From contig CAWVTM010000003.1 in the NCBI GenBank assembly GCA_963933305.1, forward strand, positions 1 through 42,949: a DNA stretch of 42,949 nt, read 5' to 3'. Position numbers and translations under genes: made by a program. Below, in pieces: positions 35,182 through 42,314 of the stretch (its first letter is position 1; each line of letters starts with the position of its first letter). The notes beneath the pieces are model-generated. The model was given only the letters and a program-made list of their open reading frames with translations, ran no database searches and was not told the origin of the DNA. The DNA comes from an uncultured bacterium (GTDB lineage: Bacteria > Bacteroidota > Bacteroidia > NS11-12g > UBA9320).

Positions 35182-37041
35182 ATGTCAGATAATAAAGAGT
35201 TAAAGATAGTATTGGCTGGCAACCCTAATTGTGGTAAGTCATCGCTATTTAATAGTCTCACAGGTCTGAAACAGAAGATCACCAATGTGCCAGGGACTAC
35301 TATAGAAAATAAGGTAGGAAGTTTCTCAGTGGAGGGACGTAAAATACAGCTCATAGATACTCCTGGTACGTATTCCTTTAATCCAAAGAGTCTCGATGAG
35401 AAAGAAGCTGTAAAAGTATTCTTTGATAATCCGTTACCAGATGCCATTCTGTATGTAGCAGATGCAGCTAATCTAAAGAGGAATCTGTTTTATTTCAGTC
35501 AATTAGCACAGCATAATATCCCCATGGTGCTAGTTCTCACTATGCTGGATATTGCAGATTTCAAAGGTTTTGAGATAAATGTTGATAGATTAGAAAAAGA
35601 GCTTGGTATCCGCGTTTTTAAGGTAAATGCACGGGAAGACGAAGGAATAGCAGAGGTGAAAAAAGCATTGGCACAAAGTCAGTTTGTGCCGCATTATGCG
35701 TTTGGTAGTAAAGAAGATCATACACACGAGAGCCACTTTGTCTCTATTAATAAGTTGCTGAATAAGACGACGACTCTAAAGTCCAAAAGGGAATTAGTTT
35801 CTAATAAAATAGACGTTTGGGCAACTCACCCTATTTTGGGTTACCTGATGTTTTTGGTGGTGCTGTTGATTATTTTCCAAAGTGTATTTAGTTTGGCTTC
35901 TTACCCCATGGACTGGATAGAGAATGGTTTTAGTCTACTCAGTGAATGGCTTACAGCGATACTTCCGGATGGGTGGCTTAAGAAGTTGATAATAAATGGA
36001 TTAGTTGCTGGTATAGCAGGAGTGGTGGTGTTCGTACCTCAGATAGCTATTTTATTTTTCTTTATGGGACTCTTGGAGGATACAGGATATATGGCACGTG
36101 TTAGCTTTATCATGGATAAAATGCTACGGGGCTTGGGACTTAGTGGGAAGTCTGTGGTGCCACTATTGAGTGGAGCTGCTTGTGCTATCCCGGCTATCAT
36201 GAGTACCAGAAATATAGAAAATTGGAAAGATAGACTGATTACTATAATGGTGACTCCTTTGATGAGTTGCTCTGCGAGATTGCCAGTATATACGCTACTT
36301 ATTAGCATGGCAATACCGAGTGACAGGTTCATAGGTATAGTAAGTGTACAGGCGTTACTAATGTTGGGAATGTATGTACTGGGTACCGCAGCAGCTCTAG
36401 TAGCAGCGGTAGTATTTAAATGGATAATAAGACAGAGTGTTCCGTCCTACTTTATAATGGAATTGCCGGTGTATCGCGCTCCTAGATGGAGTAATATTTG
36501 GATAAATATGTGGCAAAAATCACGCAGTTTCGTGGCAGAAGCGGGTAAGGTGATATTAATAGTATCAGTAGTGCTTTGGTTTTTAGCCAGCTACGGGCCT
36601 ACAGCAAATCAATCGTTTAGTATACAAGAGGCTCCGAAGTTAGATGAAAGCTATGCAGGACACTTTGGAAAGGCCATAGAGCCTGCGATTAAACCAATAG
36701 GCTTTAATTGGAAAATTGGTATCGCATTGATTACGTCCTTTGCTGCAAGAGAGGTTTTTGTGGGCACCATGAGTACGATCTATAGTGTGGGTGACGAAGA
36801 AAACTTTGATCAGATACGTGACAAAATGAGAAAAGACACCTTGGCCAATGGTAAACCGGTGTATTCTATAGGAGTCGTGCTCTCTCTTATGGTATTTTAC
36901 GCATTTGCGATGCAGTGTATGGGCACGTTAGCAGTGGTATATAAAGAGACTAAGTCCTGGAAGTGGCCGGCCATACAGTTCGTGTATATGACAGTATTAG
37001 CGTACATAGGAAGCTGGGTTACCTTTAATCTGTTTGGGTAA
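35182..37041 (+). CDS. feoB: Ferrous iron transport protein B
   Basis: G1 GNPNCGKS, G2 N.PG.T, G3 DTPGTYS; membrane motifs LEDTGYMAR, ACAIPAIM, MSCSARLPVY, FIMELP.Y, AARE. Confidence 0.95.
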   Translation: MSDNKELKIVLAGNPNCGKSSLFNSLTGLKQKITNVPGTTIENKVGSFSVEGRKIQLIDTPGTYSFNPKSLDEKEAVKVFFDNPLPDAILYVADAANLKRNLFYFSQLAQHNIPMVLVLTMLDIADFKGFEINVDRLEKELGIRVFKVNAREDEGIAEVKKALAQSQFVPHYAFGSKEDHTHESHFVSINKLLNKTTTLKSKRELVSNKIDVWATHPILGYLMFLVVLLIIFQSVFSLASYPMDWIENGFSLLSEWLTAILPDGWLKKLIINGLVAGIAGVVVFVPQIAILFFFMGLLEDTGYMARVSFIMDKMLRGLGLSGKSVVPLLSGAACAIPAIMSTRNIENWKDRLITIMVTPLMSCSARLPVYTLLISMAIPSDRFIGIVSVQALLMLGMYVLGTAAALVAAVVFKWIIRQSVPSYFIMELPVYRAPRWSNIWINMWQKSRSFVAEAGKVILIVSVVLWFLASYGPTANQSFSIQEAPKLDESYAGHFGKAIEPAIKPIGFNWKIGIALITSFAAREVFVGTMSTIYSVGDEENFDQIRDKMRKDTLANGKPVYSIGVVLSLMVFYAFAMQCMGTLAVVYKETKSWKWPAIQFVYMTVLAYIGSWVTFNLFG

Positions 37042-40000
37042 TAATCGGTACTACTAGTTTTACTTCGGTTCCCTTACTTCCATCTTCATAACTAAGGTCG
37101 TTGACTTTCACGTCAAAATTACCTTGACCTTCACTTAATATTTTTAACCGCTGCTGCGTAAGATTCATACCAGCGGACGTATGTTTACTGCTGCGTTTTG
37201 CATTCATCTCGCTTGCAGCTTCACGGCCGATACCGTTATCTGTTATAGTACAAAGGAGATATTGTTTTTCACAAGAGATTAAGATGTCGAGTTTTCTGTT
37301 TTCTTTCTTGGGTAATAGACCGTGTATGATACTATTCTCTACGAATGGCTGTATGAGCATAGTAGGCATATTGGTGTTTTCTAAATCTGCTATGTTTCTG
37401 GTTTTTATGGTATAGTCTAGGTTATTGTCCATTCTCAGTTTTTCCATTTCAAGATAGAGGTCCAGTCCTTCTACTTCGTCTGCTACACTGATGTACTTTA
37501 GTCGACTGTTTTGAAGTATTTTTCGCATTAGACTAGCAAATTTGCTGAGATAGGTATATGCCTCACGAGGCTCTTTTTTGAGTATGAAATATTGGATGCT
37601 ATTCAATGAATTGAATATAAAGTGAGGATTCATCTGACTGCGAAGTGCGGTAAGTTCTGAATCGACTAGTTGGAGTTTGTATGATCGTTCTATGGCACGC
37701 GTACGATATTTGAACAGGGCGTATATTAAAGTAGCGATGGTTAGGATGCTCACCAAAACAAACCACCATTTCTGCCAAAGCGGAGGATTAACGATTATCT
37801 TAATATCATCTGATGAGGTACCCCAGTTGCCAAATTCATCTTCAGCAAGTACTTCAAAAATATATGAGCCGGGACTGAGTCTAGGATATACAGCGGTATT
37901 GGTCCCAGTAGCAGATACCCAGTCATTGTCATATCCACGAAGTCTATAGCTATAATTAATGCCTTCGGGGTTTATATAATAAAGGGAAGTGAAATCTATT
38001 TCTAGTCTGCTATTTAGGAAACTGAGAGAATAGGAGTTTTTACTGAAATCAGTGAATTCACCCCTAACGCCGGTAATGAAAATAGGAGAGCCAGTGGTAT
38101 CAAAGTTTATCTGGTTAGGTTTAAAAAAATTAAGTCCATTTACTCCGCCGAAATAATAGGTGCCATCACTTGACTTACAAAAAGCTCCTTCATTATACTC
38201 TGTACTCTGCAGGTAGTGTACAGGTTTAAAATTGACAAATGATTTAGTGTAAATATCGTATTGGACTATTCCGTTGTTCGTTGAAAGCCAGCATTTTCCG
38301 TTTCCCTGGTAGAGTACACCGTACACTACGTTATTTACCAATCCTTCAGTTTCTGTTATCGCTGAAAATTGCTTATTATTGAGATCAAAAAGATTTAAAC
38401 CACCTCCATAAGTACCTATCAAAAGGGTGTCATCATTGACCCATTCGAGAGACATTAGGTTATTACTATTAATGGTTAATGAATCATTTTCGTCACTTTT
38501 GTACGTCTCAAAAGTTTCCGTGGTTTTGTCAAAGATTTGGAGTCCTCCTCTAAAACTAGCTAGAATAAGTTTATTCTCCGTAGGATGTTCGGTGATTTGA
38601 TAGATGGAGTTATTGGCGTGTGACTTATCTGATATGTATTTTGTAAATGTTTGGTTATCTGGTGATTTAAGATAGAGTCCTAGGGGAGTTCCTATCCATA
38701 AGTTGTGGTCTCTGTCTTCATAGAAGTGTCTTGTGGTCCCAAAGTCTACATTGCCTTTTTCGCGGTTTGCTACTGCTTTGAATTTTTCTGTTTTTCTATC
38801 AAAAAGGAAAATACCGTCCATGCTAGTACCTATCCAGAAATTGCCTTTAGAGTCTTCAAAGATGCTTCTTACAGAATTACTTTCAAATGGACCATCTACT
38901 ATTCTAGGATATACTTTGGCTATAGTATTATCCTCATTGAGTTTAACTAGTCCTGAAGCTAGAGTTCCTAGCCATATAGTGCCTTTTTGGTCTTCATAGG
39001 TGCAGTACACATTGTTACTGTACGTTTGGTCTCCTATTTCAAAATATTGCAGTAATCCGAATTTATTGAGCTGTGGAGCGTATGTACTGACTCCCGCTAT
39101 AGTGCCTATCCATAGTAAGTTGTCTTTATCTACAAATAGATCAGATATATCATCGTTTACTAAGGAGTAAGGCCTCTGTACATTAGACCGGTAAAGACTA
39201 AATAATCCATGTTCTAATTTTAGAAGGCCACCACTAGTGCCTATCCAAGCTACGCCACGTTGTACAGCGATAGTATTTATTTTATTAATGTATCGTTTAC
39301 GCGGAGGGACGTTTAATTTGGTCAACTTTTGGAAGGTTAAATCCGTTTGATACAGTCCGTTTTCAGTGCCTATTAAATAGTGGTTTTTATAGCGTGTTAC
39401 GTCGGTGATGAGAATATTTTGATCATTAAATAAAACTGATGTAGTATTAAGATCTGTGCGGATTATTTTGTGAGCAGTGGCTAGTAAAAGTGAATTGTTT
39501 TCGATTTTTAACTGTCTTATACTTTCATTATCAATGTCTTTGATTTGGACTCTTCTGGCTTTATGTAGTACGGGGTCATACTGCCACAGTCCACCGCCAT
39601 CAGTATTTATGATTATCCTATCTTGGTGTACCAGCAGATGGGAGATAGAGTAATCAAAGGTGCTATCATAGTTTCGAAGATCTAAATATCTTGTAGAGTA
39701 GTCTAGCTCACTGATTATATCTACAGTACCTAAATTTGTTCCTACATAGAGGTTGTGATCATATGAGAGTATATCATGAATATAACTATCAGATAAAGAG
39801 TTGCTTACACTCTCAGAATGTTTGAGAATTTTAAAGTGTTTCCCATCGTATCTATGAAGTCCCTCCGCAGTAGCTATCCATATGTATCCATTATGGTCTT
39901 GTTCGAAATCAGTGATAGTGCTCATCGAGAGACCATCGTTTACAGTAATATTTTGAAAACGGATAAGCCCTTGAGCACTAGCAGAGAGGGCTGAAAGTAC

Positions 40001-40045
40001 ACATAGTACGGTGACTACAGAATATTTTAATAAGTTATTATGCAC
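37025..40045 (-). CDS. LytS/YehU-type sensor histidine kinase with periplasmic beta-propellers and Y_Y_Y domain
   Basis: Signal peptide; repeated ED..G..WIGT..GL blades; Y.YRL.G.D..W Y_Y_Y domain; TM after PPLWQKWWF; ALRSQMNPHFIFNSLNSI; IQPFVENSI.HG; DNGIG. Confidence 0.93.
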   Translation of the reverse strand: MHNNLLKYSVVTVLCVLSALSASAQGLIRFQNITVNDGLSMSTITDFEQDHNGYIWIATAEGLHRYDGKHFKILKHSESVSNSLSDSYIHDILSYDHNLYVGTNLGTVDIISELDYSTRYLDLRNYDSTFDYSISHLLVHQDRIIINTDGGGLWQYDPVLHKARRVQIKDIDNESIRQLKIENNSLLLATAHKIIRTDLNTTSVLFNDQNILITDVTRYKNHYLIGTENGLYQTDLTFQKLTKLNVPPRKRYINKINTIAVQRGVAWIGTSGGLLKLEHGLFSLYRSNVQRPYSLVNDDISDLFVDKDNLLWIGTIAGVSTYAPQLNKFGLLQYFEIGDQTYSNNVYCTYEDQKGTIWLGTLASGLVKLNEDNTIAKVYPRIVDGPFESNSVRSIFEDSKGNFWIGTSMDGIFLFDRKTEKFKAVANREKGNVDFGTTRHFYEDRDHNLWIGTPLGLYLKSPDNQTFTKYISDKSHANNSIYQITEHPTENKLILASFRGGLQIFDKTTETFETYKSDENDSLTINSNNLMSLEWVNDDTLLIGTYGGGLNLFDLNNKQFSAITETEGLVNNVVYGVLYQGNGKCWLSTNNGIVQYDIYTKSFVNFKPVHYLQSTEYNEGAFCKSSDGTYYFGGVNGLNFFKPNQINFDTTGSPIFITGVRGEFTDFSKNSYSLSFLNSRLEIDFTSLYYINPEGINYSYRLRGYDNDWVSATGTNTAVYPRLSPGSYIFEVLAEDEFGNWGTSSDDIKIIVNPPLWQKWWFVLVSILTIATLIYALFKYRTRAIERSYKLQLVDSELTALRSQMNPHFIFNSLNSIQYFILKKEPREAYTYLSKFASLMRKILQNSRLKYISVADEVEGLDLYLEMEKLRMDNNLDYTIKTRNIADLENTNMPTMLIQPFVENSIIHGLLPKKENRKLDILISCEKQYLLCTITDNGIGREAASEMNAKRSSKHTSAGMNLTQQRLKILSEGQGNFDVKVNDLSYEDGSKGTEVKLVVPIITQTD

Positions 40046-40748
40046 TGGCTAATGCCGCCAAAAACATGTCCTTTCTCCGTTTAGAGACTCCTACGTTATC
40101 TCCGTTAGACATTACTGCATGGCTGCCTTCTCCACGAATGTATGTTTTTATTTCGGCAAGATTTACTAGGAAAGATTTATGGCTTCTAAAGAAGTTGAAG
40201 TCTTTTAATCTGTTTTCGTATTCTTTCAGATTTTTAGAGGTAGTAATACGTTCTCCATTTTTTAGAAAAAAGTATGTATATGCTCCATCTCCCTTGCAGT
40301 ACACTATGTCTTCAGTTTTGAGAAACTGGAGACCTTTGTTAGTAGATAATGATATTTGCTTCTTAGCTTCGGGTAGGTTACTTGCAGCATTGGTGCGTAC
40401 ACGGACTCTTTCTACAGCATTTTGGAGGTGCTCTATGCACACAGGTTTTAGAAGGTAGTCTACTGCGTCAGACCGGAATGCTTTTACTGCATGCTCTTCG
40501 TGACCAGTTACGAATATTACGTTTTGGTCTTTGTTTTTCAGAGCTTCAAGGACTTGAAAACCATCTCCGTTGGCCAAGTGAATATCTAAGAAAACTAAAT
40601 CGGGAGTGTGCCTTTCTATGGCGTCTATTCCTGTAAGTACTCCATCAGCCATGCCTACTATTTCTACTTTCTCTACAAATGAGGTCAATAGCAATTCTAG
40701 GTTTTCTCTACTCTTTCTTTCGTCATCGATAATTACGGCTCTTAGCAT
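40038..40748 (-). CDS. LytR/AlgR family response regulator (REC + LytTR)
   Basis: IIDDE, FLDIHL, FVTG, DYLLKP; LytTR motifs I.YC..DG.YT, FFR.HKS.LVNL, VSKRRK. Confidence 0.94.
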   Translation of the reverse strand: MLRAVIIDDERKSRENLELLLTSFVEKVEIVGMADGVLTGIDAIERHTPDLVFLDIHLANGDGFQVLEALKNKDQNVIFVTGHEEHAVKAFRSDAVDYLLKPVCIEHLQNAVERVRVRTNAASNLPEAKKQISLSTNKGLQFLKTEDIVYCKGDGAYTYFFLKNGERITTSKNLKEYENRLKDFNFFRSHKSFLVNLAEIKTYIRGEGSHAVMSNGDNVGVSKRRKDMFLAALASA

Positions 40749-40780
40749 AGTTTTCTTTTTACTTTAGGTTAAACAAATGG

Positions 40781-41383
40781 TTATCTTTTGATAAACCTGC
40801 GAGCCTCTAGGTGGTCCGCATATATCAAATTTAGTATATAGGTGCCGCTTGGCAGTTCTGTTACGTCTATTCTGTTAGAGTAGCCCTCCTCTCGGTGGTT
40901 TTTACCCGTCACATCTATGACACGTATGCTCTGTGGCGTTACATCCGCTTTTATGGTGATGTAATCTGTGGTAGGATTAGGGTATATAGTAAACTCTACT
41001 CTATATTCCTTGCGAAACACTTGATTATAGAGTTCTTTTGGATTTTCTGAGATGGCTTCGTTTAATTGACCATACTCAAAACCAGTATTATCTCCATCTA
41101 CGTCTGCGGAGCCTTCGTTAGACTGGCCTATTCCGCCATCATCGTCACTTCCTCCACCTTGTCCGTCCCAGTCTTCAAATACGAGAGTATCATCCACGTG
41201 ATTAGCTGCGTTTACATCTAAATTAGTGTTTGCACTGTCACTAGGTCCTACAGTTAGCTTTTCTTTTTCCTTAAGTTTTTCTTTTTCGTCATCATCACCG
41301 CCTTTGGCAAAAGAGAAACCAGTGCACATCACCAAAGCAATGATACAGATGGTTACCCTAGTTATTTTTTGATGCTTGATCAT
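40781..41383 (-). CDS. Small T9SS type A substrate: signal peptide, acidic low-complexity segment, CTD
   Basis: Signal peptide ending FSFA; about 105 aa rich in Asp, Glu and Gly; CTD IYPNPTTDYITI...IDVTGK...IDV.ELPSGTYIL...FIKR. Confidence 0.87.
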   Translation of the reverse strand: MIKHQKITRVTICIIALVMCTGFSFAKGGDDDEKEKLKEKEKLTVGPSDSANTNLDVNAANHVDDTLVFEDWDGQGGGSDDDGGIGQSNEGSADVDGDNTGFEYGQLNEAISENPKELYNQVFRKEYRVEFTIYPNPTTDYITIKADVTPQSIRVIDVTGKNHREEGYSNRIDVTELPSGTYILNLIYADHLEARRFIKR

Positions 41384-41425
41384 AATGTAAATATAACCAC
41401 AAATGTTCTGGATTCTGTGTGTAGG

Positions 41426-41458
41426 ATTGAGAAACGGGTATTTTGAATTGAAAAGCGG
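41426..41458 (-). promoter_or_regulatory. Putative LytTR direct-repeat operator upstream of the peptide-RR-HK operon
   Basis: CCGCTTTTCAAT-N9-CCGTTTCTCAAT: 10/12 identical, 21-bp period, 30 bp upstream of a TATATTTA -7-like element (41388-41395). Confidence 0.6.
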
Positions 41459-41513
41459 CTGTAAAATACTTGAATTTCATAAGTTATGCCTCTGTTACAG
41501 TGTTTTTAGTAGT

Positions 41514-41537
41514 AAGGGAGCCTTGAGACTCCTTTTT
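41514..41537. terminator. Hairpin, possible terminator between the TonB-C gene and the LytTR operon promoter
   Basis: AAGGGAGCC-TTGA-GACTCCTTTTT, an imperfect stem. Confidence 0.35.
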
Positions 41538-41612
41538 CCTACTCTTGTTAAAAGCGAAGTGTATAAAAACTTTTTACCGAATAAGCCTGTAGTATTTTTA
41601 TAAAGGAATCAG

Positions 41613-42314
41613 CTACCAATTTATCTGAATCTTGATGGGTTGTCTCATGCGTACTTTTGCTTTTTCCCCTTGGTGTATTCCAGCTTTCCATTTTGGCATG
41701 TTGGCATACATGCTCTTTGCTTCTCGCTCTATACCAAAACCAGGTTTATTGCAACTAAGTATTTGTACATCAACGACATCTCCGTTTTCATCTATGACAA
41801 ATTCTACTACTACGGTGACATCGTCAGCAAAGTCATAGATACGACTAGGAATTTTAAAATTCCGGTCAATGAACGCATTAAGGGCCTTTTCGCCTCCTGG
41901 AAATTCTGGCATATTATCTGCATAAGTGATCGCTTGATTGGGCTGTTCTACTTTTGGAGGTACTATTATCTGTTTCATTAATCCGGGATTGGGAAATTTA
42001 GGGAGTGCTATTATCTCATCTTTAGTTTCAAAAAGATCATCTGCAATTTTGATAATCGCAGTAGCATCAAAGAAAGAAGCCTCTACTAGCTCTTGTTTGT
42101 GGAGTTCAGGCTCATTGATTACTTGTGGTTCAACAAACTCAGTATATTGATATGCCGGGTCGTAGAGTAGACTTTCTGGTGGATCAAAGATGCAAATAGG
42201 GTCCGCACGGTACTGAAGGTTTAGGCCCCAATTAACAAACAGAAGAGATAGGATTAATCCAACTTCGAGAAGGATAATACGGTCTGGGTTTTTACGGTTG
42301 GTTTTTGATTGCAT
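41613..42314 (-). CDS. Energy transducer TonB C-terminal domain protein
   Basis: N-terminal TM, Pro/Glu-rich linker, MPEFPGG..AL..FI..N, V.VEFVID..G.V, MPKWK.G...G. Confidence 0.88.
   Translation of the reverse strand: MQSKTNRKNPDRIILLEVGLILSLLFVNWGLNLQYRADPICIFDPPESLLYDPAYQYTEFVEPQVINEPELHKQELVEASFFDATAIIKIADDLFETKDEIIALPKFPNPGLMKQIIVPPKVEQPNQAITYADNMPEFPGGEKALNAFIDRNFKIPSRIYDFADDVTVVVEFVIDENGDVVDVQILSCNKPGFGIEREAKSMYANMPKWKAGIHQGEKAKVRMRQPIKIQINW

Follow-up and report, generated by a model that had tools for sequence, protein, structure and literature searches.

A type IX secretion cargo gene at the head of a LytS/LytTR-type sensor operon in uncultured Bacteroidia

LytS-type kinases with Bacteroides-style propeller sensors, together with LytTR regulators, are abundant in Bacteroidota, and in the comCDE and plnABCD systems a peptide gene, a kinase gene and a LytTR regulator gene are placed under LytTR direct repeats. 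In general, a LytTR site is described as 9-11-nt repeats with 11-13-nt spacers (PMC4847170). The locus discussed here lies in a stretch of 42,949 nucleotides (hereafter the window; assembly GCA_963933305.1, contig CAWVTM010000003.1, positions 1 to 42,949) from an uncultured bacterium of the Bacteroidota (NS11-12g; UBA9320), and comprises a gene for a small protein with the tail of a type IX secretion system (T9SS) substrate, here called pep, followed by the genes for a LytTR-family response regulator and a LytS-type kinase, all under a LytTR-type box. The three genes are co-oriented, with 32 bp between the pep stop and the regulator start and an 8-bp overlap between regulator and kinase, as a sequence-only reading of the window had stated and as the coordinates of the open reading frames (ORFs) bear out.

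The reading towards which we lean, if only slightly, is that of an autoregulated LytS/LytTR sensor system that would drive a small regulon of T9SS cargo genes, with pep as the principal co-transcribed product (i.e. an output, and not the primary signal of the kinase). In such a circuit, the BT4663-like periplasmic double propeller of the kinase would sense a periplasmic cue, and the kinase would phosphorylate the LytTR regulator, two molecules of which would then occupy two 11-nt half-sites (CCGYTnnTSAA, at a 21-bp period) directly upstream of a Bacteroidota-type promoter. Binding of the regulator, which we infer to activate rather than to repress, would turn on pep, the regulator, the kinase and at least one further T9SS cargo gene (encoding a 440-aa protein). 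Pep itself would be exported by Sec and subsequently by the T9SS, and would then present itself as a disordered acidic chain of ~105 residues showing one invariant docking motif (DDTLVFEDW), presumably to a binding partner; feedback of pep on the kinase may occur alongside its role as an output. The regulatory half of this reading (one operon, a LytTR box and a putative autoregulated circuit) is well supported, and what comparison of related genomes establishes is that the three genes form a unit, that box and motif are conserved and that box and cassette are linked.

The gene unit and its candidate operator

Within the genus, a full-length pep homologue (30-64% identity) is present in 17 of 24 genomes, and it is followed by the regulator in all 17 and by the kinase (51-83% identity) in the 16 with a long enough contig, in the order FeoB> <kinase <regulator <pep <TonB-like <thioesterase. 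The other seven genomes have neither pep nor an orthologue of the regulator (best match 27-29% identity), and in six of them FeoB directly adjoins the TonB-like gene and the thioesterase gene, while the seventh (G017) is without the TonB-like gene too. This joint presence and absence, with FeoB coming to lie beside the TonB-like gene, indicates that pep, regulator and kinase are gained or lost as a precise cassette. In the FeoB tree the six cassette-lacking genomes form one clade (support 100/100), with G017 apart; two label changes are needed (a single one is not ruled out), which suggests that the cassette was lost once or twice from within the cassette-bearing genomes. Loss is here the simpler reading than gain, because sister genera carry the cassette. 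In G017, ~1.1 kb separates FeoB from the thioesterase gene (L033, C1:2319000-2329000).

To place the cassette more broadly, 191 genomes of the order were searched with the regulator and the loci were then inspected. Pep heads the operon in all 39 loci examined of one family-level lineage (f1, the window included), which represent 10 genera (labelled g1, g13-g17 and g19-g22). In g1, g13 and g16 the order is pep, regulator, kinase, whereas in the more distant genera of the family (regulator 46-58% identical) it is pep, a soluble protein of ~197 aa that matches PF06580 only, regulator, propeller kinase and a second LytTR regulator. The three-gene unit proposed from the window alone is thus upheld, both by the presence or absence of the whole cassette within the genus and by the pep-(x)-regulator-kinase order of all 39 loci from the 10 genera. 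The small soluble PF06580-only protein (~190-210 aa, without a membrane or sensor part) occurs in the distant genera and in the sister family (L108:4764-5354 (-), L095:4754-5344 (-), L092:2392-3009 (+)); there, a second LytTR regulator comes after the kinase. Both this gene and the second LytTR regulator are absent from the genus of the window. The operon of g14 additionally has a SIMPL/DUF541 gene, placed after the small His_kinase-like gene and before the regulator.

In the sister family (f2), pep was found in none of 12 loci, of which 10 are orthologous (regulator 46-52% identity) and two more distant; a six-frame search of these loci for the motif came out empty, and tblastn with 29 members of the pep family matched only the C-terminal domain (CTD) of a 435-aa protein in L105. 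The latter locus (L105:2601-3908 (-), in G037) is a distant paralogous system (regulator 40% identical), in which kinase and regulator precede the gene for the 435-aa protein with a T9SS CTD, so that here, too, a kinase-regulator pair of this type adjoins T9SS cargo. As the kinase-regulator core thus exists without pep in f2 (and, in one genus, together with the box), pep is an add-on and not the ancestral signal. Among the genomes compared, the pep-headed arrangement is confined to one family-level lineage of uncultured marine Bacteroidia, so that the conservation of gene order and repeat across Bacteroidota for which the sequence-only reading had proposed to look does not hold beyond that lineage.

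That reading had also noted a 12-bp direct repeat with a 21-bp period upstream of the operon. The repeat is indeed present (CCGCTTTTCAAT at 41458-41447 and CCGTTTCTCAAT at 41437-41426, identical at 10 of 12 positions), but in the window alone it is barely above chance and no more than suggestive: among 2000 dinucleotide shuffles of the 229-bp intergenic region, an equal or better pair arose in 1.3% at period 21, in 5% at periods 19-23 and in 27% at periods 12-40. A repeat search with exact 6-mer seeds did not report the pair, because it contains no exact 6-mer seed. As the repeat is this weak in the window alone, its significance comes from its conservation in relatives. The pattern CCGYT..T.AA-N10-CCGYT..T.AA is matched by 32 of 36 usable upstream regions from the 10 genera, giving an 11-nt half-site consensus (CCGYTnnTSAA) at period 21, and the remaining four have degenerate copies of the box at the equivalent place. 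In a set of 23 loci, the share of the majority base reaches 0.89 in both half-sites, compared to 0.56 in the spacer, 0.54-0.55 in the flanks and 0.85 in a promoter-like element further downstream. In the upstream alignment of the genus, the two half-sites have no gap between them and are followed by ~26 variable bases and then by this element, GTTATnTTTAC; a related CTATCTTTAC-like element lies ahead of the ATG in the distant genera. In the window, 43 nt lie between the end of the box and the pep ATG, as is the case in g1, g13 and g16; g17 and g19-g22 have 45-51 nt there, and g14 and g15 have 56-61 nt.

From its consensus we take GTTATnTTTAC to be the -7-type promoter box of Bacteroidota, which would imply a very short leader and would make the LytTR box abut the -33 region, i.e. 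the usual place of an activator. The layout of the box also fits the general LytTR site as given in PMC4847170, since 11-nt half-sites with a 10-nt spacer are equivalent to a 9-nt core with a 12-nt spacer at the same 21-bp period. Furthermore, the half-site core CCGTT(T/C)GT resembles the AlgR 9-mers CCGTTCGTC and CCGTTTGTC quoted in PMC4064291. In the sister genus g5, which belongs to the pep-less family, the orthologous operon has the box immediately ahead of its first gene (30.6 and 19.0 bits), from which it follows that the box belongs to the operon of the regulator and not to pep as such. The LytTR-like box that had been postulated is, all in all, conserved in relatives beside a conserved promoter-like element, and its second copy in the genome (see below) decays with loss of the cassette, which fits autoactivation.

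It is conceivable that the repeat is the site of another factor, or is conserved for some other reason, and that the three genes are linked merely by descent. Room for this is left by the 27% of shuffles that give an equal pair at some period between 12 and 40, by the small number of cassette losses and by the three further LytTR regulators that the host genome encodes besides that of the cassette (on contigs C6, C131 and C192, two of which are short; no pep-like gene was found at these loci). However, conservation is confined to the half-sites, at exactly 21 bp and throughout 10 genera, the box precedes the orthologous operon of g5 even though pep is absent there, the second site decays where the cassette is lost, and the architecture is typical of LytTR sites, so that we consider this explanation very improbable.

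The regulator itself matches Response_reg (E 4.2e-20) and LytTR (E 8.5e-18) in Pfam, and its orthologues share 77-94% identity with it inside the genus, against 46-58% in other genera. With respect to transcription, contigs from four RNA libraries (three studies) cover portions of the pep, regulator and kinase genes; in three runs they extend across the gap between pep and regulator, and in two across the overlap of regulator and kinase. In all four runs, 41393-41548 is without such coverage. Contigs of this kind cannot show transcript starts or expression levels, and the bridging is compatible with co-transcription without being proof of it. The features of the window are collected in Table 1; the 3' ends of the kinase gene and the convergent FeoB gene overlap by 17 bp (37025-37041).

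Table 1. Positions of the features of the pep locus and its neighbours in the window
Feature	Position (nt)	Strand	Description
LytTR-type box	41427-41458	minus	distal half-site 41448-41458 CCGCTTTTCAA, 10-nt spacer, proximal half-site 41427-41437 CCGTTTCTCAA
GTTATnTTTAC element	41389-41399	minus	5 nt before the pep ATG; conservation 0.85 over 23 loci
pep	40781-41383	minus	ORF, 200 aa; T9SS-tailed cargo protein
Motif VDDTLVFEDWD	41165-41197	minus	pep residues 63-73; invariant short linear motif
Regulator	40038-40748	minus	ORF, 236 aa; LytTR-family response regulator (REC + LytTR)
Kinase	37025-40045	minus	ORF, 1006 aa, GTG start; LytS-type with propeller/Y_Y_Y sensor
TonB-like TonB_C-domain membrane protein	41613-42314	minus	Pfam TonB_C; neighbour of pep
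FeoB gene	35182-37041	plus	convergent to the kinase gene

A second box and its decay upon cassette loss

The host genome is an incomplete metagenome-assembled genome (1.99 Mb in 221 contigs, 74% complete), which encodes a T9SS (SprA 2239 bits and GldM 339 bits, both above their curated cut-offs). When it was scanned for pairs with a position weight matrix (40 half-sites, 20 loci), spacing 21 gave three pairs that reached 25 bits, and each of 28 other spacings gave none. The best pair is that of the pep promoter (35.3 bits), a site that itself contributed to the matrix. The second (27.1 bits; C55:4535-4566 (+)) lies within an SDR gene, in the last codons of its 3' end, and 161 nt separate it from the downstream gene for the 440-aa protein (C55:4728-6050 (+)), whose sole Pfam match is a T9SS CTD and whose AlphaFold2 model (mean predicted local distance difference test score, pLDDT, of 41.8) is confident in the CTD alone.

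This second box appears to be a (predicted) operator that is kept inside a coding sequence. It scores 23-32 bits in 10 of 11 cassette-bearing genomes, even where the orthologue of the 440-aa protein is only 55-56% identical, whereas in all five cassette-lacking genomes it scores 18.3 bits (G017) or below 0, though the orthologues of the 440-aa protein are 63-65% identical there. The partial decay in G017 is as expected for a more recent, separate loss. Third-codon conservation is 0.91 inside the site versus 0.70 outside it in six anchored cassette-bearing genomes, and 0.73 versus 0.65 in three cassette-lacking genomes. In addition, a pattern search allowing exact matches or one mismatch recovered both boxes in each of the five cassette-bearing genomes tried.

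The third pair (contig C15, 25.7 bits) lies inside an 864-aa ORF and was dismissed as chance; it is conserved in none of 26 relatives, the best of which scores 8.3 bits, and it serves as a negative control. A weaker pair (C97:2659-2690 (+), 18.1 bits), ~50 nt upstream of the gene for a second TonB_C-domain protein, was not counted in the regulon. Its scores are low, and since its AAAAAGTATTTACCTTTT part is kept in the whole genus, whether or not the cassette is there, it may be the promoter of this TonB_C gene itself.

Pep, its motif and what the kinase may sense

The only Pfam match in pep is Por_Secre_tail (PF18962; residues 133-190, E 1.6e-11), and from its N-terminus the protein consists of a signal peptide up to residue ~26, an acidic disordered region up to residue ~130 and, from residue 131 to residue 200 (nt 40784-40993), a type-A CTD. 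It thereby has the features of a T9SS type-A cargo protein, i.e. an N-terminal signal peptide, with a hydrophobic N-terminus and a ...SFA/KG site visible in the sequence, and a C-terminal Por_Secre_tail. The part between signal peptide and CTD (residues 27-132, 106 residues) contains 27 D+E, 10 K+R and 14 G, and AlphaFold2 gives a pLDDT below 50 at residues 24-111 and of 95-98 in the CTD. The earlier description of pep as a signal peptide, an acidic stretch and a T9SS CTD without a catalytic domain is confirmed in these respects, but the acidic stretch is not just of low complexity, because it holds an invariant motif. In an alignment of 29 family members (A1) with a mean column identity of 31%, four residues of the motif DDTLVFEDW(D/E) never vary (D65, T66, V68 and D71), and a fifth, L67, is the same in at least 90% of the sequences.

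The motif is also present in 10 further loci beyond this alignment, occurs three times in the proteins of g14 and twice in one protein of g19 (L066), and is found only once among the 3223 open frames of the host genome. The tandem copies in g14 read EDTLVYD.., DDTLTFGD.. and DDTLIFADDE (L094:6176-6739 (-), L100:6116-6676 (-), L111:1081-1644 (+)). Together, these features are typical of a short docking motif that sits on a flexible, acidic tether, and not of an enzyme.

Distant members of the pep family match PF18962 too. The N-terminal part of pep, searched against 5.8 billion proteins, returned 11 relatives, all of ~200 aa, matching PF18962 only and either called 'hypothetical' or unnamed, and a look-up in the ESM Atlas with the same part gave no usable match. 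The motif pattern DTLV[FY][ED]D[WFY][DE], run against one genome per species (185,579 species), gave 58 matches, including 25 confirmed relatives, all of which are titled as uncultured Bacteroidia or Bacteroidota genomes. Pep therefore defines an unannotated protein family, consisting of a signal peptide, an acidic disordered chain with one invariant motif and a T9SS tail.

The kinase combines Reg_prop, Y_Y_Y, His_kinase (PF06580) and weak HATPase_c matches in Pfam, and H808 and the DNGIG box are invariant across 22 of its orthologues. Its two hydrophobic segments (residues 10-28, a signal or first transmembrane segment, and residues 759-780, a transmembrane segment) would place ~730 residues (~29-758) in the periplasm. 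This periplasmic part (a double propeller with Y_Y_Y) matches hybrid kinases of the BT4663 type (4a2l, E 1.3e-70; 3v9f, E 4.8e-61).

Whether such a sensor responds to something unrelated to pep, as in the output reading that we prefer, or to pep itself, has to be weighed against several points that speak against the former. The support for it is wholly comparative, being drawn from alignments of related genomes. The second site is weak in one cassette-bearing genome (G002, 14.7 bits), and the codon analysis anchored six of the 11 cassette-bearing and three of the five cassette-lacking loci, the other seven of 16 loci being unmatched by the anchor pattern. As the cassette was lost only once or twice, the contrast in box decay rests on at most two independent events and is supportive rather than conclusive, and the third pair, which is unconserved even in the closest relative, illustrates that matches in a single genome can be chance. 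A single transcript is not provable from the RNA-library contigs, to which DNA carry-over may have contributed. Finally, across 10 genera pep is the first gene in the regulator's own operon, a closer linkage than an ordinary target would show and one that may reflect an action of pep on the kinase, and a role as output only does not explain the partner of the invariant motif.

The sequence-only reading had gone further and had the propeller sense either the released peptide or the unexported cargo. Taking both versions together, sensing of pep or of its CTD by the propeller is, in our view, doubtful: it is unsupported, and it is weakened by the orthologous systems that lack pep. More specifically, the DDTLVFEDW motif could be the ligand of the kinase propeller, in which case the operon would monitor the product that it exports, be it to gauge how much the T9SS can export and to set the expression of cargo genes accordingly, or as a protein-based signal of cell density in a diderm. 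This we consider unlikely. If true, it would be the first case of a T9SS substrate serving in a signalling loop, and diderm bacteria would have a new means of following secretion or cell density; if the motif does not bind the kinase, it still marks a conserved partner at the cell surface.

One form that such sensing could take is that of a sentinel for the load on the T9SS, where the periplasmic pool of pep rises when export lags, the motif docks on the propeller and tunes the kinase, and the expression of cargo thereby tracks the export capacity. It is common for a kinase to have a small secreted accessory protein encoded next to it, and pep lies ahead of the kinase in the same operon in all 39 loci of the 10 genera. 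One invariant motif in an otherwise fast-evolving disordered chain is what would be expected of a docking site, and the only other supported member of the regulon is a T9SS cargo protein as well. On the other hand, the orthologous kinase-regulator pairs of the sister family do without pep (0 of 12 loci), and the motif is invariant while the periplasmic domain of the kinase diverges to 38-40% identity. A sentinel of this kind therefore seems rather unlikely to us.

Alternatively, pep or a fragment with its motif could be released by the T9SS, accumulate, re-enter the periplasm and activate the kinase, which would amount to a density circuit with positive feedback like those of agr, com and pln. 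The gene set under direct repeats follows the logic of comCDE and plnABCD, two LytTR regulators are present in the operon of the more distant genera, and an architecture for positive autoregulation is supported. Nevertheless, the cassette is without a processing or export gene, the sensor of the kinase is a large periplasmic propeller and not a polytopic peptide receptor, an acidic chain of ~105 residues has no evident way back through the outer membrane, the motif shows no pherotype-like variation and pep is absent from the orthologous systems of the sister family. We therefore consider such a circuit very unlikely, and the agr/com likeness that had been drawn from the window does not stand up to the lack of a processing or export gene, the single periplasmic domain of ~730 aa between two hydrophobic segments and the precursor of 200 aa.

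A different partner for the motif could be sought next door. The BtuB Ton box peptide is PDTLVVTANR according to PMC5413942, and DTLV is thus common to this box of E. coli and the pep motif; in a TonB-box-like manner, the motif might pair as a strand with the TonB_C domain of the neighbouring protein, and couple pep to energy-dependent transport or signalling. A TonB_C gene is directly upstream in 15 of 16 loci of the same genus with a long enough contig, and TonB matches are found upstream in several other genera (L057-L059, L066 and L107-L109). However, the TonB-dependent receptors of the host carry other boxes (SEVMVVGYG, NAVVVS, NEVIVTG), the regions before the plug in 16 Plug-domain matches holding boxes of the EV(M/I/V)V type and not DDTLVF. 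The TonB-like gene is not upstream of pep in G002 and G070; moreover, it survives loss of the cassette, being retained beside FeoB in six of the seven cassette-lacking genomes of the genus, and it has a terminator-like hairpin of its own. It is its own transcription unit, outside the cassette, and a role of the motif as a TonB box is accordingly highly improbable. The hairpin is GC-rich, lies at ~41517-41532 on the minus strand between the TonB-like gene and the LytTR box, is followed by a T-run in the relatives L015, L019 and L021, and looks like the terminator of the TonB-like gene. A scan of the window for sigma-70 promoters and terminators found nothing above shuffles, this hairpin included, and is ill-suited to the promoters of Bacteroidota.

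Returning to pep as an output of an autoregulated sensor system, the locus yields a candidate operator sequence, a predicted regulon of two promoters that holds T9SS cargo genes only, and natural genomes in which the cassette has been lost and the second operator is decaying. At the same time, the fixed place of pep at the head of a sensor operon makes it directly testable whether secretion and sensing feed back on each other.

Comparison with known systems

In a search of the literature (with supplementary files outside its scope), no study of pairs of propeller LytS-type kinases and LytTR regulators was found, nor a description of a pep-headed arrangement. Three groups of described systems each share part of the design.

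With the agrBDCA, comCDE and plnABCD systems of the Firmicutes, the locus shares a peptide-encoding gene, a kinase and a LytTR regulator in one operon under direct repeats with a period of ~21 bp, and with plnABCD also the presence of two LytTR regulators, which here is seen in the distant relatives. The precursor is different, however, being 200 aa long with a Sec signal and a T9SS CTD, and an expected mature part of ~105 residues, which may be trimmed further. Unlike agr and com, the locus has no AgrB- or ComAB-type gene for processing or export, as the cassette consists of three genes flanked by FeoB and the TonB-like gene. The kinase type differs as well, the motif is constant where pherotypes would vary, and the host is a diderm. 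The operon logic is therefore shared with agr, com and pln, but three of their defining features fail here, i.e. the short processed peptide, the processing or export gene and the polytopic receptor kinase.

The hybrid two-component systems of Bacteroides (BT4663 type; 4a2l, 3v9f) have the same kind of periplasmic Reg_prop/Y_Y_Y sensor. In these, HisKA, HATPase, REC and an AraC-type helix-turn-helix domain are fused in one protein, whereas here the cytoplasmic part consists of PF06580 and HATPase and the LytTR regulator is a separate protein; furthermore, the present locus lies outside any polysaccharide utilisation locus.

The LytS/LytTR systems (S. aureus LytSR, E. coli BtsSR and YpdAB, P. 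aeruginosa AlgZR) have in common with the present one the PF06580 His_kinase core with HATPase and a REC-LytTR regulator. The operator is likewise similar, with a pair of ~9-11-nt direct repeats spaced by about two turns of the helix (PMC4847170) and a half-site core that resembles the 9-mers of P. aeruginosa AlgR (PMC4064291). They differ in their sensor, which is a polytopic 5TM-Lyt domain where the kinase of this locus has a periplasmic double propeller with Y_Y_Y of ~730 aa, and in that here a T9SS cargo gene heads the operon. By its kinase core, its regulator and the layout of its operator, the system thus belongs to the LytS/LytTR class, while its sensor is of the Bacteroides hybrid-kinase type.

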